From a virus, in IMG/VR virus record IMGVR_UViG_3300042691_047309, positions 96,001-160,000 of that record: a DNA stretch of 64,000 nt. One strand, given 5' to 3'. The notes under the pieces were generated by a model, which saw only the letters and a program-made list of their open reading frames with translations, had not been told where the DNA came from and searched no databases. The position numbers were made by a program, and so were the translations under genes. Positions 10,043 through 61,134 of this stretch are shown here, in pieces. Position 1 is the stretch's first letter, and each line of letters begins with the position of its first letter.

Positions 10043-10516
10043 ATGGAATCTTTAGATAGGGAGTATAATCAAATTGTTAATCTTACTAAATTCAATGTTA
10101 ATTTCAGTAAGTATGTGGATAGCTGCGATCTTTTAAAACAAAGTCCTGACTATATTCTTGAGAAATATAATCACTGGATTGGTTTTGGACCAACAGTTGA
10201 AAAGAAGTTATATACACCAGGTGATATGACAGATTTTTTCAATAAATATTGTAAAATTTGGAAAATAGACACAGAGAGTTACCATAAATTAAAAAATATA
10301 CTGATGTATTTACATTATACTCAAAATTTGAACATCTTAAGGATGTCTGAAAAATTTGAAGAATATATCGGACCAATGACGATGATATCAGATACCTCAG
10401 ATAAACCAGGATTACATCATAAAACAAATGATTTCGTTAATAATATTTTAGAAGGAAATAAAAACAATATTAAAGTTATTTTAAGAAATATGAAAATTGA
10501 TAATATAGTGCGATGA
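10043..10516 (+). CDS. hypothetical protein with C-terminal RxxKIxxI motif
   Basis: ends LRNMKIDNIVR. Confidence 0.75.
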   Translation: MESLDREYNQIVNLTKFNVNFSKYVDSCDLLKQSPDYILEKYNHWIGFGPTVEKKLYTPGDMTDFFNKYCKIWKIDTESYHKLKNILMYLHYTQNLNILRMSEKFEEYIGPMTMISDTSDKPGLHHKTNDFVNNILEGNKNNIKVILRNMKIDNIVR

Positions 10517-10884
10517 AATATAAAGACAAATCATTTTTAAAGTATCAAGAAAAACAACGTGATGGTGAAGTTGGGTATTGGTCTAATAGGTCTGAAAGAC
10601 AAATTCGTAGAGAAAGAGAACACAGATTTTCAACTTTTTATCAAAAGTTTCTTATTGGAAAAATTGACAAGTATTGGTGGAAAAACCTAAGAGATTCTGA
10701 TAAAGAAAAAATTATATCACTTCACTATATACAAGTAGATGCTATTTCATCGAAAGATTTAGATAGATGGTATTCTGATCCTGTATTTGATACTTGGTCT
10801 GAGTGGTTTGATTATATCAAGACAACTTTTAAACCAAATAAAATATCATTAAGAGAGGATAAACTCAAAGTTTTGGGTATATAA
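10513..10884 (+). CDS. hypothetical protein with C-terminal motif
   Basis: ends LREDKLKVLGI; ATGA overlap. Confidence 0.75.
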   Translation: MKYKDKSFLKYQEKQRDGEVGYWSNRSERQIRREREHRFSTFYQKFLIGKIDKYWWKNLRDSDKEKIISLHYIQVDAISSKDLDRWYSDPVFDTWSEWFDYIKTTFKPNKISLREDKLKVLGI

Positions 10885-10911
10885 TAAGTAACAATAAAAA
10901 ACAAAATAAAA

Positions 10912-11391
10912 ATGAAAACAATTAAATTTATCTTTTTGGCCATAGTAGCCGCAATTTCAATGACTTCTTGTACTGAGAATTACTCTAATGGTGAGCGTAT
11001 CGGTATGATTACAAAATTCTCTCAAAAAGGACTTGTATGGAATTCTTGGGAAGGAACACTCAACACAACTCAAACTGGTATGAACAGTGCAACTCCTTTC
11101 GAATTCTCTGTTGATAATGATGTGAACGATCCTAAAGTTATCGCTACTTTAGATTCGGCTGCAACAAATGGTTGGAAAGTCAAAATCAAATATCACGAAA
11201 CTTTTGGAAAGAATTGGCTCTCTAACAGAGGTGAAACTAACTACTTTGTTAAAGAGGTTCAAGTCTTAGATAGAGATCCAATTGGTAATCTTTTCGGTGA
11301 CTCTTCAAAAAATAACAAATCAAATTGTGATTGTAAAACCGGTGGAAAAGTCATTGATACTATTTATGTTGTAATTGATAGAACTAAATAA
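10912..11391 (+). CDS. lipoprotein
   Basis: MKTIK + hydrophobic core + SMTSC lipobox; YSxGERxG..KFSxKG..WEG motif. Confidence 0.75.
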   Translation: MKTIKFIFLAIVAAISMTSCTENYSNGERIGMITKFSQKGLVWNSWEGTLNTTQTGMNSATPFEFSVDNDVNDPKVIATLDSAATNGWKVKIKYHETFGKNWLSNRGETNYFVKEVQVLDRDPIGNLFGDSSKNNKSNCDCKTGGKVIDTIYVVIDRTK

Positions 11392-11393
11392 CT

Positions 11394-11603
11394 ATGAGAA
11401 AGGGAGACAAACTTATTTGCAGAGAGACAGTTAATAATGTCTTTGGAATGCCTCTTTTTGAAAAGGGTAAAGAATATGAAGTTCTTTACATTGATAATGA
11501 AAAAACAGAGGTCATGGTTATATTAAACCACAACCTTTATGCAAACGAATATATGGAATATCCATTAGTATGGGTTAGTAAAAAATTTAAATCAAAATGT
11601 TAA
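11394..11603 (+). CDS. small beta-rich hypothetical protein (C...GKxY family)
   Basis: GDKLIC...FEKGKEYEV, resembles ORFs at 13702, 15241 and 49799. Confidence 0.7.
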   Translation: MRKGDKLICRETVNNVFGMPLFEKGKEYEVLYIDNEKTEVMVILNHNLYANEYMEYPLVWVSKKFKSKC

Positions 11604-12025
11604 AAGATAGAATTATAGAAATCGTTAAGACACTAACAGAAGTGACTAATTCAAATATTTTGAAGTGGAACGAAGATGATCCTAAGTCAGTATCAAGAAA
11701 TTATAGAAGAAAAATGATTTCCAATGGAGAGGATGGTACAAAGTATGAAATGGAAATAAAATTCATACTTAAAAATGATAATTGGCAAATTGAAGAGGAT
11801 GCAAGCCTTTGGTTAAGAAATAAATTACTACCAGATGGTATATTTTATATAACAAGTTTTAAATCAGACGGTGAGACTTCACATCTTAGAGATTCAATTT
11901 TAAATAATTTTTGTAAAGATATGAATCCGTCTATAGAAGATATTGAAAATACATTGAGCGATATCGCTCGTGGAATTAGTATCTCTGAGTTCAGAGAAGG
12001 AAGACTAAATAAAATTTTAAACTAA
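11597..12025 (+). CDS. hypothetical protein with C-terminal motif
   Basis: ends FREGRLNKILN. Confidence 0.75.
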   Translation: MLKDRIIEIVKTLTEVTNSNILKWNEDDPKSVSRNYRRKMISNGEDGTKYEMEIKFILKNDNWQIEEDASLWLRNKLLPDGIFYITSFKSDGETSHLRDSILNNFCKDMNPSIEDIENTLSDIARGISISEFREGRLNKILN

Positions 12026-12031
12026 AAAGAT

Positions 12032-12598
12032 ATGTATATTATTAACACTAACTTAGAAGAAGTAACTAAAGAATTTGATTTTATAAATAGCTGGATTGAC
12101 ACACTTTGTGATAACATTCTACATAAAGACAGGAAAAATTGCAAAATAACAATGTTTTATAATTATGGATATTTTGTACCAAAAGGTAAAGGTGTAAATC
12201 CTGAACAATTTGATATGTTTTTTGAAGATAGATTAAAATATGAGTTATCAAAAGTCAGAGTCAATGTTACTATAAAAATCAATGAACTGATGATAACAAA
12301 TCGTTTAAAGAAAGGAATGGTACCGGATGTAATTAAATCAATGGTTACTGAAATAACTAAGTATAAAATGTCAATTGAGTGTGAGTTTCATCAAAATGAA
12401 GATATCAAAAATTCTATTCCTGAATTTGATGAGTCAGTTGTATCAATTGAAGTTATTAAACAAGAAATCGGAACTGATAAAATTGAAGAAGATTATTTTG
12501 ATTTAGATGATATCTTAGATAAAATTGCAAAAAGTGGAATAGATTCTCTAACAGATGGAGAGAAGTCATTTTTAGATAAAAAAAGTAAAGAAATGTAA
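12032..12598 (+). CDS. protein with C-terminal DUF6576-like helical domain
   Basis: LDDILDKIAKSGIDSLTDGEKSFL. Confidence 0.7.
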   Translation: MYIINTNLEEVTKEFDFINSWIDTLCDNILHKDRKNCKITMFYNYGYFVPKGKGVNPEQFDMFFEDRLKYELSKVRVNVTIKINELMITNRLKKGMVPDVIKSMVTEITKYKMSIECEFHQNEDIKNSIPEFDESVVSIEVIKQEIGTDKIEEDYFDLDDILDKIAKSGIDSLTDGEKSFLDKKSKEM

Positions 12599-13413
12599 TG
12601 GATATAAATCAAATATATCAAGGTGATTGTTTAGATTTACTCAAACAGTTAGATGATAACTCTATTGACTTGGTTATCACAAGTCCACCATATGCGGATT
12701 TGAAGGTTTATATTGATAATCCTGGAATACTTGCTGGTGATTATGTTGAATGGTTTTTACCAATATGTAATGAAATCTGTCGAGTTATAAAACCGACAGG
12801 TTCTTTTATTTTAAATATAAATGATAAAGTAGAAGAAGGATTTAGACATCCTTATGTTTATGATCTTATTTCCGAAATTCATAAAAGAACGGAATTAAAA
12901 ATGTTTGAGCGTCTTTTTTGGAATAAGATGAAAGGTCTTCCCAATAGAAGTAGATTTGGGGATAGAGTTGAATATTTATTTTGGTTCGCAAAAGAAAAAG
13001 GTTTCAAGTTTAACATAGATGAAATGAGAACTGAATATTCTGAAAAATCCATTAAGAGAATGAAGAATCCCCTTAAAAAAAGATTTGCTCGAACAGAGGA
13101 AAATCAAAATGAAAGTGAGTATAAAGAATGGAAACCAAATCCATTAGGTGCCTTACCTACAACACTTGTTAGTATATCATCAGAATCAAAAAGAATTGCA
13201 GATAATCATGTTGCAGTTTATCCAGTTGAACTTGTTGATTACTTTATCAAAGGTTCAACTCAAGAAGGTGATTTAGTTTTGGATCCATTTATAGGAACAG
13301 GAACAACAGCGGTCTCTGCTAAAAAAATGGGTAGAAACTTTATAGGTTTTGAAAGACAATCAGAATATATCAAAGTTGCGAATAAAAGAATTTTAGATGT
13401 TGAGAATAACTAA
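12598..13413 (+). CDS. site-specific DNA methyltransferase (N4/N6, beta class)
   Basis: GDCL...ITSPPY followed by VLDPFIGTGTT. Confidence 0.92.
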   Translation: MDINQIYQGDCLDLLKQLDDNSIDLVITSPPYADLKVYIDNPGILAGDYVEWFLPICNEICRVIKPTGSFILNINDKVEEGFRHPYVYDLISEIHKRTELKMFERLFWNKMKGLPNRSRFGDRVEYLFWFAKEKGFKFNIDEMRTEYSEKSIKRMKNPLKKRFARTEENQNESEYKEWKPNPLGALPTTLVSISSESKRIADNHVAVYPVELVDYFIKGSTQEGDLVLDPFIGTGTTAVSAKKMGRNFIGFERQSEYIKVANKRILDVENN

Positions 13414-13696
13414 AACACCTAAAATAGTAAGTGTTAAATGGTACACAAAAGGAGAAATGGATCCAAGTTATAACGGTACTGATGTAGATAGTTTTGTAAT
13501 TATTCCAGGTGTTACACACTACCAACATATTTACTCTTCTCAAAAATATTTAATCTTTGATAGTAAAACAAGTTATATGGCAGTTGAATTTACATCAGAG
13601 GCTGATTTAGAAAGATACTTTATACAACTAATGAGGGAAATTAAACTTAATCAAATCACAAATGTTAATGTTGATGTTGATAAAAAAACAAAGTAA
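13397..13696 (+). CDS. hypothetical protein with near-C-terminal motif
   Basis: MREIKLNQIT near the end. Confidence 0.7.
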   Translation: MLRITKTPKIVSVKWYTKGEMDPSYNGTDVDSFVIIPGVTHYQHIYSSQKYLIFDSKTSYMAVEFTSEADLERYFIQLMREIKLNQITNVNVDVDKKTK

Positions 13697-13701: not shown

Positions 13702-13938
13702 GTGAATATTTATTGCAAAAGAACAATGTTTAATCCAGATGATAATTCGGTGATATGTGCTAAAGGTAAAATATATCAAACCGTACCATCTTCTGAATTT
13801 GAAGCAAAAACAGGTTTGGTTTTTTGGGTTTCTTCTGAAATTGAAGAAAACATACCACTAACATTAAAACTTTATGATAAATATTTCACAACTATTGATG
13901 AAATGAGGAATAATAAAATAAACGAAATACTAAAATGA
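13702..13938 (+). CDS. small C...GKxY family protein with C-terminal motif
   Basis: GTG start; ends MRNNKINEILK. Confidence 0.7.
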   Translation: MNIYCKRTMFNPDDNSVICAKGKIYQTVPSSEFEAKTGLVFWVSSEIEENIPLTLKLYDKYFTTIDEMRNNKINEILK

Positions 13939-14696
13939 AAATTGTAAAATATCTTTCTGATACTGAAATAATGAATTGGAATAATAGACTTGAGAATACA
14001 CCTTATATTGTTATTCCAAGATATCACACTCATTCATCTTTTCCTACAATAGTTTTTAAACAAAAAACAACAACTGGTTTAGGAAATTTTCTAAATGATC
14101 CACAATCAGAAGTAATAACACTGGATCCACATATGAAATTTCAGTTTTCATTTTCAGTTGCTAAAAATCGTGTAGATAATTTTTTTAATATATTCAACAA
14201 ATGGTTTTCTAAAATAGAAACCAAAACTTATTTTCAAGATAGAAGTAATCGAGAGAAAATAGATGATATAGAAGTATCTGATTCTATTATTAAATCAAAG
14301 AAGCAAATTGAACACAAAGTAAAAGAAAAAGAATATACTAAATTCATTTACTATTTTGAAGGACATCTTTCTTCAATTATGGCTTATGTGATGTTCTTAG
14401 AAGACTCTATTGATATTTTCTCTTCTATATGGGGATATGATGAGTCAGGATCAGAACACCTACTGACTAAATTTAATATTGGTGATTGTGTAACAAAAGT
14501 TGGTGACCAATCAGAAGATTATCTCATTTTAGATTTCGAGCCAATAAAAAGTGGTAAAGATTTTTCTTTAGATTATGAAATTTGTAAAATGATTACAAAA
14601 GGACAGATTATAAAATATGGAAATTCAGAAGTAGTCAAAGAAAAAGATATAACCTGGTCTCGTAATAATAGAATTGATGATATTTTAGATAATTGA
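13935..14696 (+). CDS. hypothetical protein with C-terminal motif
   Basis: KFNIGDCV SH3-like segment; ends SRNNRIDDILDN. Confidence 0.75.
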   Translation: MKIVKYLSDTEIMNWNNRLENTPYIVIPRYHTHSSFPTIVFKQKTTTGLGNFLNDPQSEVITLDPHMKFQFSFSVAKNRVDNFFNIFNKWFSKIETKTYFQDRSNREKIDDIEVSDSIIKSKKQIEHKVKEKEYTKFIYYFEGHLSSIMAYVMFLEDSIDIFSSIWGYDESGSEHLLTKFNIGDCVTKVGDQSEDYLILDFEPIKSGKDFSLDYEICKMITKGQIIKYGNSEVVKEKDITWSRNNRIDDILDN

Positions 14697-14727
14697 TTTG
14701 ATATTCTAAAAATTAGTATTATATTTG
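14697..14727 (+). promoter_or_regulatory. Bacteroidota housekeeping-sigma promoter
   Basis: TTTG-N19-TATATTTG, 4 nt before ATG 14732. Confidence 0.8.
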
Positions 14728-14731: not shown

Positions 14732-15241
14732 ATGGATAAGTGGAGTAATCTACAATTTAAAGATTTTCTCGAAGGTGAAAGACTGAATTGTTATTGGTTC
14801 TGGTATAAAGGTAAAATCACAAGAAGAAAGAATTTAGATGGAGAAATTTACGAACAAAACCTTTCTGGTAAATGTGAATGGAATGGAATAAGATTGCAAA
14901 ATGGATTTAATCATTGTTTTAATATTTTAACTAATAAATATATGAGAGGATTAAAAGAAGGAAAATACAACGGTCAAACTAAAGCAGAGTTTGAAAAGAA
15001 CAAAGTTAGAGTTAGTGATATTTGGATAAAATCCGGTGCTGATATTGAGAAGGCTAAGTCTTTATCAACAACACAAGCAAATCGAATTACTGACGAGTGG
15101 AAGGCTCTAAATAGAGCTTTTGCTGCTAAAGAAATGGGTTACGAAGAAATATTTGAGATTTTCTTTCATCGTGCTTATGAATTAGGTTCAGTTTCTAAAT
15201 TAGAATACCGAGAATATAAATTAGATAAGCTTGGTATCTAA
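14732..15241 (+). CDS. hypothetical protein with C-terminal motif
   Basis: ends YREYKLDKLGI. Confidence 0.75.
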   Translation: MDKWSNLQFKDFLEGERLNCYWFWYKGKITRRKNLDGEIYEQNLSGKCEWNGIRLQNGFNHCFNILTNKYMRGLKEGKYNGQTKAEFEKNKVRVSDIWIKSGADIEKAKSLSTTQANRITDEWKALNRAFAAKEMGYEEIFEIFFHRAYELGSVSKLEYREYKLDKLGI

Positions 15242-15528
15242 TGAAAATAATTAAAACTAAATTTCTTTGCAAGAATAGTAGTCAAACTGTTACGAAAGGA
15301 CTTCCTATGTATGTTAAAGATAGGTTTATTGAAGGAAAATGGTATGATGGTGAATATGAAGCCTGGAACTTCCATGATAGTTACAGACTAAATGGTGGAT
15401 GGCGTAGATACTGGGTTATAAATGAAAAAGGTGAAAAAGAAGAAATTCACAGAGCTCACATGAATGCAATTTTTGAAACAGATATAGAAAAGTTAAGAGA
15501 TAATAAAATAAATGAAATACTAAAATAA
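15241..15528 (+). CDS. small C...GKxY family protein with C-terminal motif
   Basis: ends LRDNKINEILK. Confidence 0.75.
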   Translation: MKIIKTKFLCKNSSQTVTKGLPMYVKDRFIEGKWYDGEYEAWNFHDSYRLNGGWRRYWVINEKGEKEEIHRAHMNAIFETDIEKLRDNKINEILK

Positions 15529-15529
15529 A

Positions 15530-15928
15530 ATGAGCGAAGAAACAAAACAACTAAAAGTATCCAATGAGTTTGTTGATATTTTTAAAAACTTCAATGTTGT
15601 AAATAAAGTTGAAGAAATGAAAGCACTTTCTAAGAAAGAACTATATTTATTATTAACACTCTGCTTGGATAAGCACGATGATGAACAACCAACTGTTGTT
15701 TATAACTTTCAACCGTTTAGAGAACAAGTGATGGAGTTATTTGAAATTCAGGATGATAAAGAAACTCTCAATCCGGTTCTAAAAGAGCTTATTGAAGAAA
15801 GCGGTGATAAATACATTGAAACTGATAATATTGTTGATGAAACAGGAAATAAACTTCCAGAGCCTTTAACAAAAGAGGAAGTGAGAGATGTAAAAATTAA
15901 TATCATCAATAGTGATGATTCAAAATAA
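15530..15928 (+). CDS. hypothetical protein with C-terminal motif
   Basis: VRDVKINIINSDDSK at the end. Confidence 0.75.
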   Translation: MSEETKQLKVSNEFVDIFKNFNVVNKVEEMKALSKKELYLLLTLCLDKHDDEQPTVVYNFQPFREQVMELFEIQDDKETLNPVLKELIEESGDKYIETDNIVDETGNKLPEPLTKEEVRDVKINIINSDDSK

Positions 15929-17204: not shown

Positions 17205-17591
17205 ATGAATATGGGGTTTACAAGATATTGGGAATTTGAGAGATTAAATAGTGAGAAGTTTAAAGAGTTCTCTAATATCTGTCAGTTACTTATAGATAAT
17301 ATGGATATTCCACTTGATGATGTCACCGTTAATGAAGCACAAGTAAGATTCAATGGAGTTGATGATGATGGTCATGAAACATTCAATTTCTCTTTAAATA
17401 AAGATGGATTTAACTTTTGTAAAACAGCTACTAAACCTTACGATGAAGTTGTGTATGGTTGTCTTTATATTGCTAAGTTAATATTCGAAGATAGTGTAAA
17501 GATAAATCAAGATTGTAAAGAAGACGAACCTTATGTAAAAAAAGTAATATCTATTCTAAGAGAAAATAAACTTAATCAACTATTAAAATAA
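17205..17591 (+). CDS. hypothetical protein with C-terminal motif
   Basis: MGFTRYW start, FNG..HETF..FCKT..KPYD; ends LRENKLNQLLK. Confidence 0.75.
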   Translation: MNMGFTRYWEFERLNSEKFKEFSNICQLLIDNMDIPLDDVTVNEAQVRFNGVDDDGHETFNFSLNKDGFNFCKTATKPYDEVVYGCLYIAKLIFEDSVKINQDCKEDEPYVKKVISILRENKLNQLLK

Positions 17592-18118: not shown

Positions 18119-19612
18119 ATGATAATTAAGAACATTCACGAAAAATTACTTAACGGTATCCAAACGATGCTTATTGATACTAAAATCAATTTGCCTTACT
18201 ACGGAGAATTCAACCTACACGTTTCATTTCATGAGCAAGATTCAATTGGAACCTGTGCTGTAAATGTTACCTCAAAAGGTATGAACTTCTTTTATTCTCC
18301 AAAGTTTTTGGAAAATATGTCTCAGAAAGAAGTGAACTTCATCACATTACATGAAGATTTTCACTTACTTTTTAATCATCCTCGTAGAACAATCACTGGT
18401 CAATACGATCACAAATTGTCCAACATCGCTCAAGATATGATTATTAATCACGTTATCTGGGAAGATATCCCACACGCTTTTGTTGAAATTCCAAAGTCTC
18501 CAGATGGTAAGAATATGGCACTTTTTGTTCCGAAAGAATATGAAGGTAAACTTATCTTTGAAGAGCTTTACGAATGGTTGAAAGAAGAAAAAGAAAAATG
18601 GCAGAAAGAACAAAAACAAAACTCTCAATGTCAGTCTTGTGGTGGATCTGGAAAGAAACAAGATGGTCAATGTCAGCAACCTCAAAAAAGTGATGACCAA
18701 AAACAAGATGGTAAGGGAAAAGGTGAAAAACAAAATGGTGAAGGAGACCAACCAGAGGATGGTCAAAGTCAATCAGAAGGTCAGGGTCAAGGAGAATCTT
18801 GTACAGATTGTCAAGGAACTGGTAATGAAGAAGGAAAAGACTCTTCCGGAAAACCTTCTTATGGACCCTATGGTAAAAATCCATCTAAAGATGGTGAGTC
18901 ACTTGATACTTGGTCCAAAGAGCAAATCTTCCAAGATATGGAGAATGGGAATGGAGAGTATCTTGACAAACACATCGGTGATGATGTACCTGAAGAATTG
19001 AGAGATGCGATGGTTAAGGATGTTATGGAGAGATTAGCCGCTCGTGGTTTATCAGCGGGTAATGTTGAACAAACACTAAACAAACTTCGTAAGAAACGAA
19101 AAGATTATCTTCGTGAAATCAAAAGAGCAGTTTCTAATATGATTTTTGGAACTGTTAAAGAACGAACAATTGTTAAACCTAATCGAAAAGGTATATCTGG
19201 TTTAAAAGGTAATCGTAAAGTTAAAACCAAAATTAATTGTATCTTAGACACATCAGGTTCAATGGGTGGAACTTTTGAGAGAGTTTTGAACTATGTTTAT
19301 CGTAATGATATTGAAATCAATTTGATTGAGGCTGATACTGAGGTTAAATGGATTGAAAATATTAAAAATGCGAAAAAACTTGAAACTCTTAAAATCAAAG
19401 GTCTTGGAGGAACAATTCTTCAACCTGCGATTGACTTAGTTGCTGACCAATACAATGAGTTTAACACTGTTGTATTGACTGATGGTTACTGCGACTCTCT
19501 TGACTTATCTAAGATTAAAGGTAGAGTCTTAATGGTATCGATTGGTGTAAAAGTTCCGATTTCTCGTTCTAATGGAAAAGTCAAGCAGATTATGGTTGAG
19601 AAAGAAAACTAA
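18119..19612 (+). CDS. metallopeptidase-like (DUF2201) + VWA domain protein, MoxR partner type
   Basis: LHEDFHLL HExxH, NIAQDMIIN, ILDTSGSM MIDAS, GGT, LTDG; TATATTTG at 18094. Confidence 0.88.
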   Translation: MIIKNIHEKLLNGIQTMLIDTKINLPYYGEFNLHVSFHEQDSIGTCAVNVTSKGMNFFYSPKFLENMSQKEVNFITLHEDFHLLFNHPRRTITGQYDHKLSNIAQDMIINHVIWEDIPHAFVEIPKSPDGKNMALFVPKEYEGKLIFEELYEWLKEEKEKWQKEQKQNSQCQSCGGSGKKQDGQCQQPQKSDDQKQDGKGKGEKQNGEGDQPEDGQSQSEGQGQGESCTDCQGTGNEEGKDSSGKPSYGPYGKNPSKDGESLDTWSKEQIFQDMENGNGEYLDKHIGDDVPEELRDAMVKDVMERLAARGLSAGNVEQTLNKLRKKRKDYLREIKRAVSNMIFGTVKERTIVKPNRKGISGLKGNRKVKTKINCILDTSGSMGGTFERVLNYVYRNDIEINLIEADTEVKWIENIKNAKKLETLKIKGLGGTILQPAIDLVADQYNEFNTVVLTDGYCDSLDLSKIKGRVLMVSIGVKVPISRSNGKVKQIMVEKEN

Positions 19613-20233: not shown

Positions 20234-20723
20234 TGTTTTAGAAATGGACATGAGTATTGAATACAAGTTCGCGTGGAATGTAGCTGCTCGAGCTTGTTTC
20301 AGTATTTTCTATATCCTACCAGACTGTATGTTACTTTATAGACATCAAGTGTCGGAACCATATATCTGGACTAAATTCGGATGTAATCACCCTGATAAAA
20401 TAGATTTAGTAAAACTAGATGGTAAAAATCTAATGTTATTTCATGTTGATGTTTATAAAGAAAAAACTCATAAATTTAAAGACCTAATTGATTATTGTCA
20501 GTCTAATAACATTGATATCTGGATTCCTTTTCCACTTAAAAACCTTTGGAGAACTGAAGAGCCTCATCTTCAGATTATGAAAGATATACTAGATAATTAT
20601 CAATACAGCACTTACGATTTAACTGGAATGAACTACAGGAGTGAAAATGAAATAAGTAGATTGGTTAAAGAAAAAACGAAACCTATATTAAGAGATATAA
20701 AATTAAGAAACTTATTTGATTAA
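20226..20723 (+). CDS. hypothetical protein with C-terminal motif
   Basis: ends LRDIKLRNLFD. Confidence 0.72.
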   Translation: MINVLEMDMSIEYKFAWNVAARACFSIFYILPDCMLLYRHQVSEPYIWTKFGCNHPDKIDLVKLDGKNLMLFHVDVYKEKTHKFKDLIDYCQSNNIDIWIPFPLKNLWRTEEPHLQIMKDILDNYQYSTYDLTGMNYRSENEISRLVKEKTKPILRDIKLRNLFD

Positions 20724-26429: not shown

Positions 26430-26702
26430 ATGGAAAAAATGGAACTTTATGATTACTACAATCTTGATGAATGTGTTGATAGAAAAAAAGTAATTACTAC
26501 ATTAAAGAAGTTTAAAAAAGACGGAAAGATCGATTATTCTTTAGATGGTGAGGAACTTCATATTGAAGATATAGATTTAGATGATACTGAAATCGAGTAT
26601 TTGTCTGAACTACTTGACGAAAATGATGTTTTTCCAAATCCTGATAAGGAAGAAGGTGATGATGATTATTCAGACTTTGATGACTACGATGATGATTATT
26701 AA
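26430..26702 (+). CDS. small acidic hypothetical protein
   Basis: 90 aa, D-rich tail. Confidence 0.7.
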   Translation: MEKMELYDYYNLDECVDRKKVITTLKKFKKDGKIDYSLDGEELHIEDIDLDDTEIEYLSELLDENDVFPNPDKEEGDDDYSDFDDYDDDY

Positions 26703-30774: not shown

Positions 30775-31365
30775 ATGAAAATTTATTTAGTAAGACTAAA
30801 AAATACTAATGTTAGATGGTTTGATAATGATTCAGACCTTACTAACTTTTTTATTAATGCACCTGAAAGACTTGATAGTTATCAAGTCACTATACTTAAT
30901 GCTGAAGTTGATACAAAAATAACCGGTGATAAATTATTTGATGCTATTCAAGAACAGTCTAATCTTGATAGAAAATTAAATGTTGTTTTAGGTAATGAAT
31001 ATGTTGATAAAGTCGAGAAATTAATTCAATTATATGAGCAGTTTTGCAAAAGGACTCCTTGGGATAAAACCAAAATGACTACAAATGCTCAAAAAGTTTA
31101 TGAAAAATTGACTACCACCACACCGGAAGAAAAACAATTTTATAAACTTATGAGTAGTAGTTGTCAAAGATATTTACTTTACTCTGTTTCTGACTCAGTT
31201 GAGTGGTACGAAGCTATGTTGGATGTTTATCCAAAAATTAAAGGTCTTGCTGAAACTTGTGAAATTGAGTATGTTGATCCTGTTACTCGTGGAACTTCTT
31301 GGAGAGGTGGTAGAACTCCTGTAAAAATGGTTAAAAACTTCGAAAAAGCAAAAAAAATAAAATAA
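30775..31365 (+). CDS. hypothetical protein (paralog of next gene)
   Basis: start moved to MKIYLV behind the promoter; shares DSVEW[YF] and NFxKAK with the 31365 gene. Confidence 0.78.
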   Translation: MKIYLVRLKNTNVRWFDNDSDLTNFFINAPERLDSYQVTILNAEVDTKITGDKLFDAIQEQSNLDRKLNVVLGNEYVDKVEKLIQLYEQFCKRTPWDKTKMTTNAQKVYEKLTTTTPEEKQFYKLMSSSCQRYLLYSVSDSVEWYEAMLDVYPKIKGLAETCEIEYVDPVTRGTSWRGGRTPVKMVKNFEKAKKIK

Positions 31366-31952
31366 TGAAAAAGTTTATAGTTTATAGTGATGTTGTTAAA
31401 ATATTTAATGAAGAAAAAGACTTAGTTAAATATTTAGCCACTCAAAAGTCAAAAAGAACTTGGTCTGGTGGTAAAATCGTTTCTAAATTAGACCTTATTG
31501 AAATTGAAACTTGTGAGATTGAAGTTCTGGAAGAATCTATTGCTTCAAAATATTTAGAGTCTTATGTAGAAAAACAAAAAAGAGAAACAAAATTGAACAG
31601 TATTTTTGGAGATACTCTTTCTCAGAATTTTGAAAAGTTTAAAACTATGTTTTTAGAGTTAGCAAAAGATGATATGAACAAAAGGAAATTTCTAACTCAA
31701 CTAGAAATAACACCAGTTGAAAAGAAATCTATCTCAAAACTTATTTCAGGTTGGGTCTCTTATCTTTTCTTATTAAATGATAGTGTTGAGTGGTTTAAAA
31801 TATTGATTGCCTTACACAACTTTAGAAAAATAAATGACTCCTATGTCACAGAAGTATTTTATTCCAACGGTTCAAGTAGATATCAAAATATCAAAATAAG
31901 TGAATCGACTAAAGAGAATTTCTATAAAGCAAAATCACTAAATAATTTTTAG
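31365..31952 (+). CDS. hypothetical protein (paralog of previous gene)
   Basis: internal RETKLNSIFG; DSVEWF; NFYKAK. Confidence 0.78.
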   Translation: MKKFIVYSDVVKIFNEEKDLVKYLATQKSKRTWSGGKIVSKLDLIEIETCEIEVLEESIASKYLESYVEKQKRETKLNSIFGDTLSQNFEKFKTMFLELAKDDMNKRKFLTQLEITPVEKKSISKLISGWVSYLFLLNDSVEWFKILIALHNFRKINDSYVTEVFYSNGSSRYQNIKISESTKENFYKAKSLNNF

Positions 31953-32646: not shown

Positions 32647-32712
32647 ATGTGTGGAAGATTTTCTTTACAACAATTTGTTAGAGAAGAAAAAATAAATTCT
32701 ATTATTTCTTAA
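32647..32712 (+). CDS. 21-aa micropeptide or gene remnant carrying the C-terminal motif
   Basis: MCGRFSLQQFVREEKINSIIS*; stop overlaps the convergent stop as TTAA, like other gene pairs here. Confidence 0.4.
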   Translation: MCGRFSLQQFVREEKINSIIS

Positions 32713-41004: not shown

Positions 41005-41363
41005 TGTTTGAATTAAACTCACATATGATTCAAAAAATGGGGTGGTTTTCATATCACCCTTCTATTGGACTTGGGTTTGATTTGCCTGGTGTTTTTCATA
41101 GTGATCCTTTTGTTAGATTTTTTTTCATTGACAAGTCTAAAAATGTTGTTTTCATTATTAAAGAAATGACTCCTGATGAAAAACAAAAGACAAAAAAAGA
41201 ATATAAATTTATAGATTTTAAAACACCAATAAACATAAAAGCTACTAAGATGAATATAGTAGAATTTAACTCAAATGAAGAATTATGGAAACTGGTTATT
41301 GAAAATGAGGCTTGTGGTGAAAATTATCAAAGACACTTTAGACTAAACAAAATATTAAAATGA
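41004..41363 (+). CDS. hypothetical protein with C-terminal motif
   Basis: start moved to the TGATG overlap (MFELNS); ends QRHFRLNKILK. Confidence 0.72.
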   Translation: MFELNSHMIQKMGWFSYHPSIGLGFDLPGVFHSDPFVRFFFIDKSKNVVFIIKEMTPDEKQKTKKEYKFIDFKTPINIKATKMNIVEFNSNEELWKLVIENEACGENYQRHFRLNKILK

Positions 41364-43442: not shown

Positions 43443-43664
43443 ATGAAGTACAAACCCGGTGATATAGTCATTAAAACCACAGGTGGTAATAAAATGACAA
43501 TCTTTGATAAGATATCCGATGGTGTTTATAAATGTCTTTGGTTTGTTGAAAACTCAATGAAGGAATCCGTATTTAATGAGGAGGAATTAGTTACTTTAAA
43601 TGAGTATAAACGGTTTCTGAAAACGGAAGAAAGAGAAGATAAGATTAATCAATTACTGGGTTAA
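43443..43664 (+). CDS. YodC/DUF2158-like small protein with C-terminal motif
   Basis: YKPGDIV..TGGNKMTI...CLWF; ends EREDKINQLLG. Confidence 0.78.
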   Translation: MKYKPGDIVIKTTGGNKMTIFDKISDGVYKCLWFVENSMKESVFNEEELVTLNEYKRFLKTEEREDKINQLLG

Positions 43665-48729: not shown

Positions 48730-49074
48730 ATGAAACTTGACATAAATGAAGTATATCATAACTATATTGTTAGAGTGGTAATTTTTTCACTCTTCACTTA
48801 TAAGAGATTAGTTAGGCAGCCAAATGTATATAAACAATCTGTTCTTTCGTTTGTGACTAAAAGAGTTGCATGGAAAATACATCTTGTTATAGATACTGGT
48901 CTTCAAATGTCAAAAGATGAAGAAAGAGATATAGTATTAAATGAGTTACTCGAAGGAATTGAATCTGATTATCTAACAACAGTAACTGTTACTTTTACAA
49001 CACCACTTAAAGAAATAACAATAGAGGTTGATTTAAAAGATGAAGATAAATACCAAAACTTTCTGTACTTATAA
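48730..49074 (+). CDS. hypothetical protein
   Basis: AATATATA 4 nt upstream; internal ERDIVLNELL. Confidence 0.7.
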   Translation: MKLDINEVYHNYIVRVVIFSLFTYKRLVRQPNVYKQSVLSFVTKRVAWKIHLVIDTGLQMSKDEERDIVLNELLEGIESDYLTTVTVTFTTPLKEITIEVDLKDEDKYQNFLYL

Positions 49075-49761: not shown

Positions 49762-49798
49762 TTTTACTTTATTAAATTTTTTTTAGTATATTTGTAAT

Positions 49799-50014
49799 AT
49801 GTTTATCTGTGTTAGTAATACATCAAATAGAAGTGAATTAGAAATAGGAAAATACTATGACTTATTTAAACATGAGCAACACCCAAAAGTTGTTTGGGTA
49901 AAAATACCCGATTCATCTAATACTGTTGGTTACAGAACTATTCAATGTTATTTAGCTGACTTTAAAAATAAAGGTCAATGGAGAAATGATCAGATTGATA
50001 AGATTTTAGATTAA
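49799..50014 (+). CDS. small C...GKxY family protein with C-terminal motif
   Basis: TATATTTG 4 nt upstream; ends WRNDQIDKILD. Confidence 0.75.
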   Translation: MFICVSNTSNRSELEIGKYYDLFKHEQHPKVVWVKIPDSSNTVGYRTIQCYLADFKNKGQWRNDQIDKILD

Positions 50015-51345: not shown

Positions 51346-51386
51346 ACTATATTGTATATATTAAAATTGTTTATTATATTTGTCGT

Positions 51387-52241
51387 ATGAGAGGATTTAG
51401 AATTTACAACAAACAAGAACTATTCAATTCGATTGAAAAAATCACGGTTGAAAAAATTGAAGACCAAGTTATCACAAAGTATAACGGTCGTGTCACACAG
51501 GTGGCAAATGTCTCAAAAAGATATGAGATATTTGATATTGTTAAATATCTAAAAGATAAGATTGAACTTATTGAACAAAACTTTACTATTTCTAAATATC
51601 AATTGTTGATTAGAAAAGGTCAACAATACCTTCAACTTATTTCTGATAGTGTTGAAATCGGAGGTATTCGTTTTTACAAATCCTTTTACATACTTAACTC
51701 AACTGATAAATCACGTAGGCTTAGTTTCTATGCGGGTCTACACTCTGAAAAATATTATTTCATCGGAGCAAACAATGTAGGTATGTCAAGAAAACATCTT
51801 ACTGGTGTCACTGAAGCTGCTGATGTTGCTTCAACCGCATTGAATGGTGAAACTTTTGATGAACAAATTAAAGCTCTTCAAAACTTAGTCGGTCACCGTA
51901 TTCAACTCTCTAAAATACGTGAGGTTATCTTAGGTGATAAAGAGGAAATTCCACAAATCAATCATCGTAAATTTGATGCGTTTAAGAACTCTATTCGTTA
52001 CGCTGATAGTGATGGTCTTATCAGACTTACCAGAGAACAACGTTCTCAATTATATACTGACTCTGAAAGAATGACAGAAGTTAAAGAAGATTTTTACTTA
52101 GATGCTTTCTGGGTTTTCGGAACTTATATGAGATTGTTTAACAAACAAGACTCACATATCATTAAAAATGAAACAGACCGTATTATGAAGATTACTCAAT
52201 GGGCTGTTAGAAACTCAGTGTTGGAGGCACTTGGTATCTAA
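51387..52241 (+). CDS. DUF932-like protein with C-terminal motif
   Basis: VSKRYEI, ILNSTDKS...FYAGL, RKH; TATATTTG 4 nt upstream; ends VRNSVLEALGI. Confidence 0.6.
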   Translation: MRGFRIYNKQELFNSIEKITVEKIEDQVITKYNGRVTQVANVSKRYEIFDIVKYLKDKIELIEQNFTISKYQLLIRKGQQYLQLISDSVEIGGIRFYKSFYILNSTDKSRRLSFYAGLHSEKYYFIGANNVGMSRKHLTGVTEAADVASTALNGETFDEQIKALQNLVGHRIQLSKIREVILGDKEEIPQINHRKFDAFKNSIRYADSDGLIRLTREQRSQLYTDSERMTEVKEDFYLDAFWVFGTYMRLFNKQDSHIIKNETDRIMKITQWAVRNSVLEALGI

Positions 52242-52887: not shown

Positions 52888-54210
52888 ATGGCATACGAAA
52901 GAAAAACTTACGACCTCTTTATCTCTGACGAACTAAAAGAAGTTTTAGAACAAATTAAATCAGAATCAGTTGTTGCTGATTTGCTTCTTAAACGCAGACA
53001 TTCCAAAGAGGACTTGGTTGATGATCCAATAAATTTCGTATCCATTTCATCACAAGATTCAACTCGAATTTCTTACCTTACAACTGAGCGTATAGGTATG
53101 ATAAACGAGGGTGAATTTTGGACATCCTCTCGTAGATTTCACATGAAACCAGGTGGTTTTATTTCTAAAGTTTTTAAGAATATTTCTGCAAAAGATGTTG
53201 AGGTTTTTTCAAATCTTTACCGTTCAGAGGTTCGAAAACCTAAATTTGAATTTAAAATTGTAAATGGTGAAGATATCAGAAGATATTACCATTATGATTA
53301 CCACGCAAATGACTATGGAAGTCTTGGTGTTTCTTGTATGAGATATGAATCTTGTCAAAAACTATTCAATATGTATGTCGAAAACTCTGATAAAATTTCT
53401 TTGTTACTTATGTTAAACGAAGATGGTCGAGTTATGGGTCGAACTCTTCTTTGGAACTTCGATGGGAATAGAATTATGGATAGGATTTATTCTGTCAATG
53501 ACGAACAACTACCTTTTTATTTTAAGAAGTGGGCAACTGAAAACGGTTACTACTATAAATCACAACAAAATTGGTATAACTCAATTCAATTTGAAAGACT
53601 AGGAGAGGGTAAAAAATTATTAAAGTTAGACGTTAAGTTAGATAGTTTTGATTTTAGATACTATCCTTATATGGACACTTTTAAGTTCTTCAATCCCGAT
53701 ACAGGAACATTCTCTAATTACCGACCAGAAGGTAGAGATCATTATACACTTTGTTCATCTGATGGAAGCAAATATGATTGGAACTATCTTGAGTACGATG
53801 ATTTTGATAAAGTTTATCGTCATAGAGGAGAGACCGTAAGACTTAATTATCTTAATATGAATGCTCACCCTGATAGATGTAACTATTCTGAAATACATGA
53901 CCAATACTTGTTAAGTGATCATTCTCAATGGAGAGACGATTTAAGAGATTATGTTTTTAGTGGTGAATATTCAAACTTGAATGATGTGAATAGAATCGAA
54001 CAAAGAATTAAAGATAATGAGGAATATGAAAAAGAGAGAGAATCTCGTAGAAGTAGAAGGGGATATTCTATTTCACAGAGAATATTAGAATCACTTTCTA
54101 ATCCTCAAAGTGAGATTGATATGTCAAGTCTTTATCAACAATATGTAACCTCAGGATCAGCATTCGACCAAATTAATATATCAACACAAACAGAATCTAC
54201 AGAAGAATAA
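52888..54210 (+). CDS. phage-type hypothetical protein
   Basis: SCMRY, GRTLLW, MDRIYS, YPYMDTF motifs; TATATTTG at 52866. Confidence 0.8.
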   Translation: MAYERKTYDLFISDELKEVLEQIKSESVVADLLLKRRHSKEDLVDDPINFVSISSQDSTRISYLTTERIGMINEGEFWTSSRRFHMKPGGFISKVFKNISAKDVEVFSNLYRSEVRKPKFEFKIVNGEDIRRYYHYDYHANDYGSLGVSCMRYESCQKLFNMYVENSDKISLLLMLNEDGRVMGRTLLWNFDGNRIMDRIYSVNDEQLPFYFKKWATENGYYYKSQQNWYNSIQFERLGEGKKLLKLDVKLDSFDFRYYPYMDTFKFFNPDTGTFSNYRPEGRDHYTLCSSDGSKYDWNYLEYDDFDKVYRHRGETVRLNYLNMNAHPDRCNYSEIHDQYLLSDHSQWRDDLRDYVFSGEYSNLNDVNRIEQRIKDNEEYEKERESRRSRRGYSISQRILESLSNPQSEIDMSSLYQQYVTSGSAFDQINISTQTESTEE

Positions 54211-55761: not shown

Positions 55762-55790
55762 AAAAAAGAGAGTATTTAACTCTCTTTTTT
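55762..55790. terminator. bidirectional terminator
   Basis: aaaaaagagagt-attta-actctctttttt. Confidence 0.75.
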
Positions 55791-56252
55791 CTCTGACTTT
55801 TCAACATATTCCGAAAAAATATTCATTTCTTTAAATACCTCTAAAATTTGTGATGTTATTTCAAATTTCTCAGCAGCATAGACTGTTTCAATTTTACTAA
55901 TAACAGCATCTATGGAGTTTTTGATTGAATATTCTGAAACTATTTTTTCTATATCTTCATAAACCTCTTCTTTTAATTTTTGACCCATCTTTGATAGTTT
56001 ATATTTTGCATCTTTATCAATTTCAACCATTTGACTTTGTAGCCTCTGAAATTTTTCCATTCTTTGTTCTTGAGTAAGGTTGTCAACAATAATACCACCC
56101 TGAGATGCAGCAATGATATTTTGCATTTCTCTTCTCATTGGTTCAATACTTTCAAGTATTTGTGCCTTTTCTTTGTCAATCTCAGCAACTCCTTTTTGAT
56201 ACTTATCAAAGTGTCTTGTTAGTAATTCAAAATCTACGACTCTAATTTCCAT
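55776..56252 (-). CDS. OmpH/Skp-like chaperone lacking a signal peptide
   Basis: IRVVDFELL strand, long coiled hairpin, IDAVIS..VYA...EIT.QIL ending. Confidence 0.75.
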   Translation of the reverse strand: MEIRVVDFELLTRHFDKYQKGVAEIDKEKAQILESIEPMRREMQNIIAASQGGIIVDNLTQEQRMEKFQRLQSQMVEIDKDAKYKLSKMGQKLKEEVYEDIEKIVSEYSIKNSIDAVISKIETVYAAEKFEITSQILEVFKEMNIFSEYVEKSEKKES

Positions 56253-59146: not shown

Positions 59147-59205
59147 TACATAATATTATTTTTACAAACTATATATTATTTTTTTTATATAAAAAATAAA
59201 AAATT

Positions 59206-59661
59206 ATGAACTATTTATCAAAAGTATCAGAGTTTCATAAAACCTTTGACGCTCCAATATTAGAAAGTCCTCAAATTCCATCTGATGAAAGATGTCAATT
59301 AAGAGTTTCACTACTTCAAGAAGAATTAAATGAATTAAAACAAGCTATTGATGATAATGATATTGTTGAAATCGCAGATGCTCTCTGTGATTTACAATAT
59401 GTCCTTTCTGGTGCAATCTTAGAATTTGGTTTAGGTGAAAAGTTTGATGAACTTTTTGATGAAGTACAAAGGAGTAATATGTCTAAGGCTTGTAGTTCAA
59501 TACAAGAAGCAATCGAAACAATATCACACTATAAAAAGAAAGATAGTACTGAATCATCATATAAAATGATTGGTGAAAAATGTGTAGTGTATAGAGACTC
59601 TGATAACAAGGTGTTGAAATCTATAAACTATTCACCTGCTGATTTAAAAAATAAAATTTAA
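59206..59661 (+). CDS. MazG-like/PRA-PH NTP pyrophosphohydrolase
   Basis: LLQEELNEL, EIADALCDLQYV, EVQRSNMSK, KVLK. Confidence 0.9.
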   Translation: MNYLSKVSEFHKTFDAPILESPQIPSDERCQLRVSLLQEELNELKQAIDDNDIVEIADALCDLQYVLSGAILEFGLGEKFDELFDEVQRSNMSKACSSIQEAIETISHYKKKDSTESSYKMIGEKCVVYRDSDNKVLKSINYSPADLKNKI

Positions 59662-59663
59662 GA

Positions 59664-60509
59664 ATGGAAAATTTAGGAATTATAGGACAGGGTTTTGTCG
59701 GAGGTGCAGTTTATCAAGGAATGAAAAACTTCTTCAATGTTTATACTTTTGATATAAATGGAAATTGTACAGAGTCATCACTTTTTAATTTAATCGAAAA
59801 AGTTGATATGACATTTTTATGTTTACCAACACCAATGAGAAAAACAGGAGAATGTGATTTATCAATTGTTAAAAATTGTCTCTCTCAAATAGATTTGATT
59901 GTTAAATCATTAGATAAAAAAGATTTTATTGTTATTATAAAATCAACAATTCCACCGGGAACAACAGAAATGTTAAATAAAGAAAACGAAAATATACATA
60001 TCGTTTTCAATCCAGAATTTTTAACAGAAGCCAATGCTGTTGAAGATTATAAAAATCAAAATAGAATTATTGTCGGAGGTGACAGACCTTATTCATCAAA
60101 AGTTAAAAATATTTTTGAAAAGGCTTTCCCAAAAGTTCCTATTGTAAAGACTTCCTCAACAATTGCAGAAATGATTAAATATGTTACAAATACTTTTTTA
60201 GCAACTAAAGTTTCATTTGCTAATGAAATGTATCAAATATGTGAGGGGTTGAATATTGATTATGATAAAGTGATTGAATACGCTCGTTATGATGATAGAT
60301 TGGGTAATTCTCATTGGTCGGTTCCTGGACCGGATGGCGACCTGGGATACGGTGGTCATTGTTTTCCAAAAGATGTAGCAGCTCTAAAATATGTCGGTGA
60401 CTCAATGAATGTTTCAACGACAATGTTATGTGCAACTATGGACAAAAATAAAGAAGTTAGAACAGACAAAGATTGGGAAAGCCAAATAGGAAGAGCAGTT
60501 TCAGAATAA
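59664..60509 (+). CDS. ugd: UDP-glucose/GDP-mannose dehydrogenase family (lacks C-terminal UDP-binding domain)
   Basis: GQGFVG, LPTP, IKSTIPPG, NPEFL, GYGGHCFPKD. Confidence 0.88.
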   Translation: MENLGIIGQGFVGGAVYQGMKNFFNVYTFDINGNCTESSLFNLIEKVDMTFLCLPTPMRKTGECDLSIVKNCLSQIDLIVKSLDKKDFIVIIKSTIPPGTTEMLNKENENIHIVFNPEFLTEANAVEDYKNQNRIIVGGDRPYSSKVKNIFEKAFPKVPIVKTSSTIAEMIKYVTNTFLATKVSFANEMYQICEGLNIDYDKVIEYARYDDRLGNSHWSVPGPDGDLGYGGHCFPKDVAALKYVGDSMNVSTTMLCATMDKNKEVRTDKDWESQIGRAVSE

Positions 60510-60512
60510 AAT

Positions 60513-60761
60513 ATGAATCCTGATATGTCGGATATTCTTATGATGAACTCTAAGTTCTATGGTGATTATTACTGTAAGAAAGTAAAAGATTTTTTTGATG
60601 ACGGTCAAATAGTAACTGTTTATTCACACTACTCATATAGACTTTTTACAATAGGAAAAAATAAAAGAATATTCAGAATTCATCATACAGATTTTGGAAC
60701 TACACTTTTTACAAAAGAAGAATGGAGAAATAAAAAAATTAATAGAGTTTTAAAAAAATAA
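60513..60761 (+). CDS. small protein with C-terminal motif
   Basis: ends WRNKKINRVLKK. Confidence 0.7.
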   Translation: MNPDMSDILMMNSKFYGDYYCKKVKDFFDDGQIVTVYSHYSYRLFTIGKNKRIFRIHHTDFGTTLFTKEEWRNKKINRVLKK

Positions 60762-60777
60762 TTTCTATATTTGCCAT

Positions 60778-61134
60778 ATGTTATCGAATAAAGAAAAGAA
60801 ACGAAGACAACACGAGAAAGAACTGAAGTCACTTAGAAATAAGATGAGTAAAAACATCATATGGTTTGACGCTCTCAATACCACTCAACAATATGACCTT
60901 CTTTTTGCTTGGAAGAGAGAGAAAAAATCAAACACACGAACTAAACCTCAAAAGAAAACAATTATAAGAAAAGTGGGTGGATTCTTGAATGGTAGATATC
61001 AGACTATGAGAAAAGAAATCGAAATAGTGTCTTATCCACCAAACTTTAAACATTTTCTTAAAAATATGAAACCAAAATTCAGCGTAAGTGTCTCAAAAAT
61101 GAGACAGGCTCAATTAAAACATCTATTGAAATAA
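60778..61134 (+). CDS. basic protein with C-terminal motif
   Basis: TATATTTG 4 nt upstream; ends MRQAQLKHLLK. Confidence 0.72.
   Translation: MLSNKEKKRRQHEKELKSLRNKMSKNIIWFDALNTTQQYDLLFAWKREKKSNTRTKPQKKTIIRKVGGFLNGRYQTMRKEIEIVSYPPNFKHFLKNMKPKFSVSVSKMRQAQLKHLLK

Follow-up and report, generated by a model that had tools for sequence, protein, structure and literature searches.

Why should so many otherwise dissimilar proteins of one phage end in the same short peptide? The question is raised by a 64,000-nucleotide stretch of viral DNA (the window), bases 96,001–160,000 of the 175,894-bp contig IMGVR_UViG_3300042691_047309 (G000). A preliminary description of the window had listed 18 plus-strand proteins whose C termini carry a nine-residue tag and had taken it for a portable docking, sorting or degradation signal serving one hub. 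Here we show that the tag is constrained as a peptide and recurs on different proteins in otherwise unrelated phages, and we propose, at about even odds (roughly 0.5), that it is a portable short linear docking motif for a single conserved host receptor. The contig, ~30% G+C and 95% coding with 244 genes by our own simple gene caller, is a fragment of a huge uncultured T4-like phage whose IMG/VR relatives lie on contigs of 276–483 kb. In the near-complete relative G003 (476,236 bp, CheckV 97%) the portal is of T4 type; its identity is 84% to the portal of GenBank LR745206.1 (634,780 bp) and ~25% to portals of T4-like phages. A second huge genome, G001 (639,979 bp, terminal repeats, 100% complete), is deeply diverged from G003: the two have only 126 proteins in common, 6 of which also occur in Flavobacterium phage immuto. 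Genomes of 634–642 kb are described as the 'Mahaphage' clade, with predicted Bacteroidetes hosts (PMC7162821). Gene calls throughout come from our own crude callers, and most of the contigs may be fragments.

All 18 peptides were found at the open reading frames (ORFs) named for them, and 17 end credible genes. The peptide REEKINSII at 32647 is present, yet it closes an ORF of only 21 aa that is missing from the gene set; the gene listed at 13702 is tagged, although its start is probably the ATG at 13726 and not the GTG at 13702. With the strict regular expression of the preliminary description, R-x-x-[KR]-[IL]-x-x-[ILV]-[LI], we counted 14 C-terminal and 0 internal matches in G000, compared with 0.09 (maximum 1) and 1.47, respectively, in shuffles (n = 200). 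A looser expression, R..[KRQEV][IL]..[ILV][LIFGVNT] within 10 aa of the end, matched the C termini of 36 of 244 genes against a shuffle mean of 0.56 (maximum 3), and its 9 internal matches equalled chance (9.06). Later counts drop a weak case at contig position 172328 and add gene 13397, in which 11 residues follow the motif, so that the total is still 36, 17 of them in the window. The tag also occurs on minus-strand genes and outside the window. Of the internal copies claimed earlier, those in 31365 and 48730 were confirmed, and the one in 30775 is weak (DRKLNVVLG). Because the expression was derived from the observation itself, we offset it with the shuffles, with a position matrix trained on another lineage and with negative-control genomes. 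A degenerate DNA pattern proved too noisy as a local scanner (14 matches versus 5 expected).

The core consensus is R-x-x-K-[IL]-x-x-[IL]-[LFG]. In a profile of 156 independent tagged families, in which positions 1, 4, 5, 8 and 9 are fixed by the expression and the remaining positions are free, the tail reads K at −4 (36%), S/Q at −3, any residue, a hydrophobic residue at −1, R1, D/E/N at 2 (82%), any residue at 3, K4 (85%), I/L5, N6 (42%), K/Q7, I/L8 and, at position 9, L (62%), F (12%), I (10%) or G (9%), followed by any residue at 10. Positions free of the expression are therefore biased too, namely 2, 6 and −4. In 47% of the families the motif is followed by exactly one residue, and in 73% by 0–2 residues (range 0–11); the tails with up to 11 following residues, together with the internal copies, indicate that a free carboxylate is not required. 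Arg1 is almost never replaced by Lys, the single K variant, at 61176, having been spotted by eye. Position 2 is D/E/N in G000 and G003 and K in G001, where the lineage variant, R-K-x-K-[IL]-x-x-I-[FL], has acidic residues after it. Variants missed by the expression, such as REDLINQLL and REAAIDLLL, occur in many families that score as mixed, and all tag counts are thus lower bounds.

Codon use places the constraint on the peptide, as the preliminary description had argued from differences between copies. The motif Arg is encoded by AGA in 30 of 36 cases (80% genome-wide) and the motif Lys by AAA in 24 of 29 (82% genome-wide), and both Ile and Leu codons are used at positions 5 and 8. Motif codons thus follow genome-wide usage while Ile and Leu interchange, which points to selection on the peptide; conservation at the nucleotide level was rejected, since the variation in these codons matches that elsewhere in the genome.

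The carriers are unrelated, mostly small ORFans that form a fast-evolving set. Deep paralogy was rejected: the bodies of the 36 tagged proteins yielded one weak pair (E<1e-3), and their folds differ. Among 20 window proteins, only that of gene 43443 scored above the cut-off for a Pfam family (DUF2158, 27.8 bits versus 22.3), which bears out its earlier label 'YodC-like'. The 'DUF932-like' label of the 284-aa protein of gene 51387 was not supported, as that protein matched 0 Pfam families and its structural model found nothing in the PDB with Foldseek at E<=0.001. After de-duplication, other contigs supplied 145 tagged proteins, of which 140 had no Pfam family at E<=1e-4; in neither set did any Pfam family cover the tail, and an ESM Atlas look-up with a 30-residue tail gave no usable match. 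Tagged proteins are smaller than untagged ones (median 118.5 aa versus 207.5 aa, p=5e-8) and are depleted among the proteins conserved between G003 and G001 (5/92 tagged versus 121/543 untagged, p=6e-5).

Where orthologs exist, the motif is retained and the other tail positions drift, at identities of ~50%, 41% and 27%. RNSVLEALGI of the 284-aa protein corresponds to RDEKISSLLD... and RDSKIEEILN... in orthologs at ~50% identity; across its 120 closest homologs, R1, L5, [LI]8 and G9-I10 are fixed and positions 3, 4 and 7 vary. Gene 14732 has a G001 ortholog (41% identity) ending in RREKLLEIF and then acidic residues, and orthologs of gene 10043 end in RDMKISNLI in G003 and in RQIKILNII in G001 (27% identity). 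Tag status is largely a family property: among families of at least three members, 22 always carry the tag, 103 never do and 16 are mixed.

Tagged genes are concentrated behind one of two classes of box found 5–15 nt before start codons. The E-type box is TAnnTTTG, mostly TATATTTG, and we take it to be the −7 element in housekeeping promoters of Bacteroidota; the window contains 25 copies, compared with an expectation of 7.8. The phage-specific L-type box resembles AATATATA and precedes genes of structural type (head–tail adaptor-like, baseplate-wedge-like); examples lie upstream of contig positions 67241, 45812 and 166113. Each gene was then assigned to a unit by the closest box upstream of it within the same co-directional run; the 36 tagged genes fell into 19 E, 7 L, 6 mixed and 4 boxless units, and the 208 untagged genes into 46 E, 127 L, 10 mixed and 25 boxless units (odds ratio for E versus L 7.5, p=7e-6). 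An L-type box of its own precedes 0 of 36 tagged and 56 of 208 untagged genes (p=6e-5). In the window, 14 of the 17 tagged genes lie in TAnnTTTG units, and the exceptions (41004, 43443 and 60513) are those that had been named. The earlier view of the tag as a portable signal on unrelated proteins, concentrated behind host-type promoter boxes, therefore stands, with the addition that it is kept in orthologs.

To place the tag among other genomes, we applied one caller and one expression to every record (G000 has 240 genes in this comparison). The tag ended 92 of 635 proteins in G003 (14.5%; shuffle mean 1.8), 90 of 960 in G001 (9.4%; 1.9) and 35 of 240 in G000 (14.6%; 0.6), and in LR745206.1 it ended 11 of 77 and 16 of 75 proteins in two 50-kb samples (27/152). 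Cultured Flavobacterium phage immuto stayed near shuffle level, with 3 of 221 genes (1.4%; 0.6) in the whole genome and 0 of 86 annotated coding sequences in its first 50 kb, and none of 41 ORFs in the small-gene region of a second cultured Flavobacterium phage, mymlan, was tagged when translations were read by eye. A position matrix built from G001 tails alone, and set to yield ~1 match per shuffled proteome, gave the following numbers of C-terminal and internal sites, respectively: 13 and 0 in G000, 31 and 6 in G003, 6 and 3 in G005, and 0 and 0 in immuto.

G005 (L278, L279) carries the tag into a different kind of phage. This 32,971-bp genome has terminal repeats, is complete (CheckV 100%) and is of siphovirus type, with a tape-measure protein, a non-T4 portal and a large terminase. 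Eight of its 50 genes are tagged (16%; shuffle mean 0.1), all in the non-structural half at 18–27 kb. BLAST comparison of its proteins with those of G000, G001 and G003 yielded no homolog at E<=1e-3 other than one weak 25% match to a 1,679-aa protein. The same tail is thus found on different, lineage-specific proteins in phages with nothing else in common.

A DNA pattern written for a single common codon version of the tag recovered 76 stretches from IMG/VR. By our ORF calls, 54 of them bear one or more tagged ORFs, 47 two or more and 30 three or more. In bacterial and archaeal species genomes the same pattern gave, among at least 120 loci listed, 5 with a tagged ORF and 0 with two (odds ratio among the matches listed 56, p=2e-24). 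Two Bacteroidales metagenome-assembled contigs, L170 and L261, contain homologous small ORFs (63% identical) that end in FREKKLNEIF and FRKLKLNQIF and may be phage-derived.

In the two proteins modelled with AlphaFold2 (AF2), both from shallow alignments, the predicted position of the tag is the outer end of a long C-terminal helix. In the model of the 284-aa protein (18 sequences, mean predicted local distance difference test score (pLDDT) 88.3), tag residues 275–283 end a continuous helix predicted at 256–281, and pLDDT drops to 75 and then 65 towards the tip. The 73-aa DUF2158-type protein (6 sequences, pLDDT 86.2) is modelled as a beta domain (8–45) and then a long helix (52–72) whose confidence falls from 84 through 73 to 65. 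When the profile is drawn on a helical wheel, the Ile/Leu residues at 5 and 8 line up with L9 as a narrow apolar arc. The invariant Arg sits at the centre of this arc, which is bordered by Lys4 on one side and by D/E/N2 on the opposite side.

Together, these data lead us to favour a docking motif. The tag would form the last turns of a C-terminal helix jutting from unrelated small proteins, and its tip would show one face, made of Arg1, Lys4 and the Ile/Leu residues at 5, 8 and 9 and flanked by D/E/N2 and Asn6, that plugs into a groove on one conserved host-cell receptor. Early, non-structural proteins would thereby be brought to the same place or machine, the variable body of each giving a specific activity. 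One consensus on ~90 different proteins per genome, and across lineages, argues for an external partner, because tails that paired among themselves would be free to diverge; the use of the tag by unrelated phages that share no protein argues that its reader is encoded by the host. Of the hubs proposed in the preliminary description, a phage compartment or capsid route and phage-encoded chaperones are disfavoured, the former because tagged genes lie outside the late class and the latter because G001 lacks both Hsp70 and a Clp ATPase, and a host-encoded receptor is favoured. As for what docking achieves, recruitment or localization, including adaptor-like use of a host machine, seems slightly the better guess, and it is nearly as probable that early proteins are passed to a host AAA+ protease or chaperone that clears them at a set time; the huge phages' investment in proteostasis is compatible with such a transfer but is no proof of it.

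Several observations weigh against this proposal. No receptor was found among the candidates examined. The early and late classes are assigned from boxes in the sequence, which makes early timing presumptive, and five positions of the profile were set by the expression that gathered it. No recurrent host protein family with a motif tail appeared among the species-genome matches listed, in a scan whose narrow pattern catches few tags and has low power; those loci thus give no sign that the tag mimics a host motif. The absence of the tag from two cultured Flavobacterium phages implies that a host-encoded receptor would not be exploited by every phage of the genus. Concerning G005, its terminase is only 33–35% identical to those of Parabacteroides and Flavobacterium siphoviruses, which says little about its host; unlike in the huge phage, a TAnnTTTG box lies within 45 nt upstream of 0 of its 50 ORFs; and it might co-infect with huge phages and exploit their receptor.

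The alternative that survives best, although we consider it unlikely, is self- or hetero-association, in which the terminal helices pair with each other and oligomerize small proteins with no separate receptor. Such pairing would also explain use by unrelated phages and suits an autonomous, portable module, and both AF2 monomers end in a long, solitary helix of lower confidence of the kind that usually needs a partner. Yet the core has ~10 residues with 3–4 hydrophobic positions and an Arg amid the apolar arc, ~90 proteins per genome bearing one consensus would cross-react, and the charge pattern differs between lineages at position 2.

A receptor encoded by the phage itself (J-protein/Hsp70/ClpB, ClpS, MoxR-like ATPase with its DUF2201–VWA partner, PF00004 AAA+ or M16) that receives early proteins is an improbable alternative, drawn from the heavy proteostasis gene content of these phages. 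G000 encodes an Hsp70 system (DnaK, DnaJ, GrpE) and a ClpB/ClpC-like double AAA+ ATPase without an N-domain, all outside the window (contig 7502–9619, 47539–48618, 49473–49940 and 63421–65304). Phage Hsp70 and a Clp-type ATPase are also present in G002, G003 and LR745206.1 and absent from tag-rich G001, so they were rejected as a universal receptor. J-proteins occur in G000, G003 and G001, of which the latter two have two in common; tagged genes sit inside the grpE–dnaJ operon in G000 and G003, but the dnaJ neighbours in G001 are untagged, and adjacency is therefore inconsistent between lineages. ClpS, M16 (HxxEH intact) and M42 peptidases, an SPFH protein, a small PF00004 AAA+ ATPase and a MoxR-like ATPase with a DUF2201 metallopeptidase–VWA partner are common to G003 and G001 but do not occur in immuto; none of these was found in G005, in which searches against PHROGs detected no chaperone, AAA+ ATPase or protease despite its tags. 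AAA+ N-terminal regions vary in length, and the small PF00004 ATPase, whose N-terminal region is not conserved in length, is also missing from G000. The DUF2201–VWA protein and the MoxR/CobS-like ATPase (phrog_1297) lie in the window at 18119–19612 and 38930–40054, are 46–48% identical between huge phages and are 1 kb apart in G001.

Three further candidates were set aside. The helical domain that follows the internal tag in 31365–31952 is absent from G001. An untagged family of ~450 aa near tagged genes has a leader resembling the T4 capsid-targeting sequence (CTS) and is a multi-copy late family, with no evident receptor character; it comprises 39 members in 26 fetched loci, among them window 52888–54210 and contig 67241–68482, has no Pfam match and often ends in a paired CxxC. 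The sliding clamp was rejected from the C termini of the 126 proteins common to G003 and G001, among which replication proteins are untagged: the tag is missing from the ends of the polymerase, ligase, flap nuclease and sigma-like proteins, and the C-terminal part of the polymerase has an acidic/hydrophobic tail.

Were the tag a membrane-targeting helix of the MinD or FtsA type, or a nucleic-acid-binding one, a generic host structure would suffice and no phage would need a specific partner, which fits an amphipathic, basic C-terminal helix. We think this a poor fit: the tails are weakly hydrophobic when set against the Eisenberg surface-seeking threshold (156 tails; mean Eisenberg hydrophobicity −0.28, moment 0.25, net charge +1.2), D/E/N2 and N6 are conserved, Arg is hardly ever replaced by Lys, and two or three basic residues are too few for a nucleic-acid arm. 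Unlike in MinD and FtsA, the apolar face is interrupted by the invariant Arg, and an Arg at that place is better accommodated by a specific groove than by a membrane.

C-terminal tags that bind HK97-fold shells are known, and the tag shares its position with encapsulin cargo peptides and scaffold C termini, but a signal for loading cargo into the virion or capsid is very unlikely here. Tagged units are mostly E-type, none of the tagged genes has a late-type box of its own, tagged genes lie outside late and structural units, all eight in G005 lie outside its structural module, and core structural proteins are untagged; an expression for T4 CTS-like leaders picked out a largely separate set of nine genes, of which 7 lie in L, 1 in E and 1 in mixed units and only 2 are tagged. 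Least probable of all is that there is no protein signal, the tag being a nucleotide by-product (of recombination junctions, or of the A-rich initiation region where the next gene overlaps) or reflecting an influence of the nascent chain on termination, for although 21 of 36 tagged genes have a co-directional gene within 15 nt downstream and a single residue after the motif is the commonest spacing, the tag rate is independent of coupling (21/119 coupled, 15/125 uncoupled, p=0.28), five tagged genes have a convergent next gene, codons and the distance to the stop vary, and internal copies exist.

A docking motif of this kind can be set beside several known systems. The ssrA, MuA-type and lambda CII tails are C-terminal signals read by ClpX, ClpA or FtsH that are unstructured and often need a free carboxylate. 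Like them and SspB-type tails, the tag is a short C-terminal peptide on unrelated proteins, near the terminus in most, with carriers that would be early and regulatory in type; unlike the ssrA/ClpX degron it is predicted to be helical, is followed by 0–11 residues, has internal copies and another consensus, and marks 9–16% of the proteome, and unlike the SspB-type XB tail it has no flexible linker, appears to continue a helix of 21–26 residues and differs in consensus. The CTS of T4 is N-terminal, lies on late internal proteins and is cleaved off in the head. It resembles the tag in being one short peptide on many unrelated proteins of a T4-like phage (T4-type portal); the tag is C-terminal or internal and belongs to another promoter class, and 7 of 9 leader matches are untagged.

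PRANC, a folded domain of ~50 residues that binds Skp1 in eukaryotes, is C-terminal in poxvirus ankyrin proteins, and the logic is similar, with variable, fast-evolving bodies and a constant C-terminal module into one host machine; here the constant part has ~10–13 residues and the viruses are phages of bacteria. MIT-interacting motif 1 (MIM1) of ESCRT-III, (D/E)xxLxxRLxxL(K/R), docks on a helical domain of an AAA+ ATPase and is likewise a C-terminal amphipathic helix with a conserved Arg beside Leu positions, but its register and consensus are not those of the tag, the phage proteins examined yielded no MIT-type partner, and G005 has no AAA+ ATPase. Clamp-binding C-terminal tails (T4/RB69 gp43, gp33 and gp55; bacterial QL[SD]LF) are also C-terminal with a hydrophobic-x-x-hydrophobic-hydrophobic core, and differ in that the replisome proteins of these phages are untagged.

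Short targeting and docking peptides are thus a known kind of element; as far as we have seen, this motif, its scale, its class of carriers and its sharing between unrelated phages are new. We found no description of the motif in the literature. LR745206.1, a published complete genome, carries the tag, and the main text of PMC7162821, considered apart from its supplements, is silent on it and contains the word 'C-terminal' 0 times. The tag sorts 9–16% of genes into one class, proposed to be early, fast-evolving and read by one partner, and gives a ten-residue handle for the experimental search for that partner, which is probably a conserved host component on which different phages converge and, if so, a vulnerability or control point in Bacteroidota-type hosts. 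More speculatively, and in our estimate doubtfully, the tag could be a host-directed address code common to unrelated phages, its tip coupling a large and quickly renewed arsenal of small early 'warhead' proteins to a single essential host machine; they might, for instance, serve as adaptors that bring their individual host targets to a host AAA+ protease or chaperone. The host-manipulating proteome (~90 proteins per huge genome) would then be identifiable by sequence alone, and the adaptor scheme would be a counterpart, in viruses of bacteria, of the F-box/PRANC logic of large eukaryotic viruses. The features of the window are collected in Table 1.

Table 1. Positions of tags, motif-like copies and promoter-type boxes in the window
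Feature	Position	Strand	Gene	Remark
Tag RNMKIDNIV	10484..10510	+	10043-10516 (157 aa)	1 residue before stop
Tag REDKLKVLG(I)	10852..10878	+	10513-10884 (123 aa)	L009/L010 ortholog tails identical
Tag REGRLNKIL	11993..12019	+	11597-12025 (142 aa)	ortholog tail RSGRLSNLL
Tag REIKLNQIT	13634..13660	+	13397-13696 (99 aa)	11 residues after motif
Tag RNNKINEIL	13906..13932	+	13726-13938 (70 aa from ATG)	
Tag RNNRIDDIL	14661..14687	+	13935-14696 (253 aa)	
Tag REYKLDKLG(I)	15209..15235	+	14732-15241 (169 aa)	
Tag RDNKINEIL	15496..15522	+	15241-15528 (95 aa)	
Tag RDVKINIIN	15884..15910	+	15530-15928 (132 aa)	5 residues after motif
Tag RENKLNQLL	17559..17585	+	17205-17591 (128 aa)	
Tag RDIKLRNLF	20691..20717	+	20226-20723 (165 aa)	following gene convergent
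Tag RHFRLNKIL	41331..41357	+	41004-41363 (119 aa)	
Tag REDKINQLL	43632..43658	+	43443-43664 (73 aa)	DUF2158 body; tip of predicted helix 52-72 (AF2)
Tag RNDQIDKIL	49982..50008	+	49799-50014 (71 aa)	following gene convergent
Tag RNSVLEALG(I)	52209..52235	+	51387-52241 (284 aa)	tip of predicted helix 256-281 (AF2)
Tag RNKKINRVL	60726..60752	+	60513-60761 (82 aa)	
Tag RQAQLKHLL	61102..61128	+	60778-61134 (118 aa)	orthologs RE[AS]AIDLLL
Internal copy RETKLNSIF (aa 73-81/195)	31581..31607	+	31365-31952	then Gly and second helical domain
Internal copy RDIVLNELL (aa 66-74/114)	48925..48951	+	48730-49074	
Weak internal look-alike DRKLNVVLG	30967..30993	+	30775-31365	paralog of 31365-31952
REEKINSII in 21-aa ORF	32680..32706	+	32647-32712	doubtful gene, possibly remnant
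TATATTTG box	10031..10038	+	before 10043	4 nt before ATG; heads tag-rich unit
TATATTTG box	14720..14727	+	before 14732	
TATATTTG box	49787..49794	+	before 49799	
TATATTTG box	51375..51382	+	before 51387	
TATATTTG box	60766..60773	+	before 60778	

Other terminal modules and neighbouring genes were seen in passing. A different kind of terminal peptide, a strongly acidic, aromatic-containing tail, ends the proteins at window 26430–26702 and at contig 30987–31952 and 70345–70896, among them a gp32-like single-stranded DNA-binding protein (...DDFFSDL). A second shared C-terminal module, the 47-aa Pfam DUF6576, ends three otherwise different proteins (window 12032–12598 and 32011–32520; contig 94455–95078, equivalent to L015:14455–15078), and a 67-aa G003 protein consists of little beyond it. 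The window also contains host-like outer-membrane genes at 44217–48565 and 55776–56252, encoding a TonB-dependent receptor (CarboxypepD_reg), a protein bearing a type IX secretion system tail (Por_Secre_tail) and an OmpH/Skp-like chaperone, as well as a nucleotide cyclase domain protein (Guanylate_cyc) at 49090–49761 and, at 37309–37995, a sigma-70-like factor limited to regions 1.2 and 2. Outside the window, at contig 70988–77343, lies a PrkA–DUF444 (YeaH)–SpoVR gene trio.

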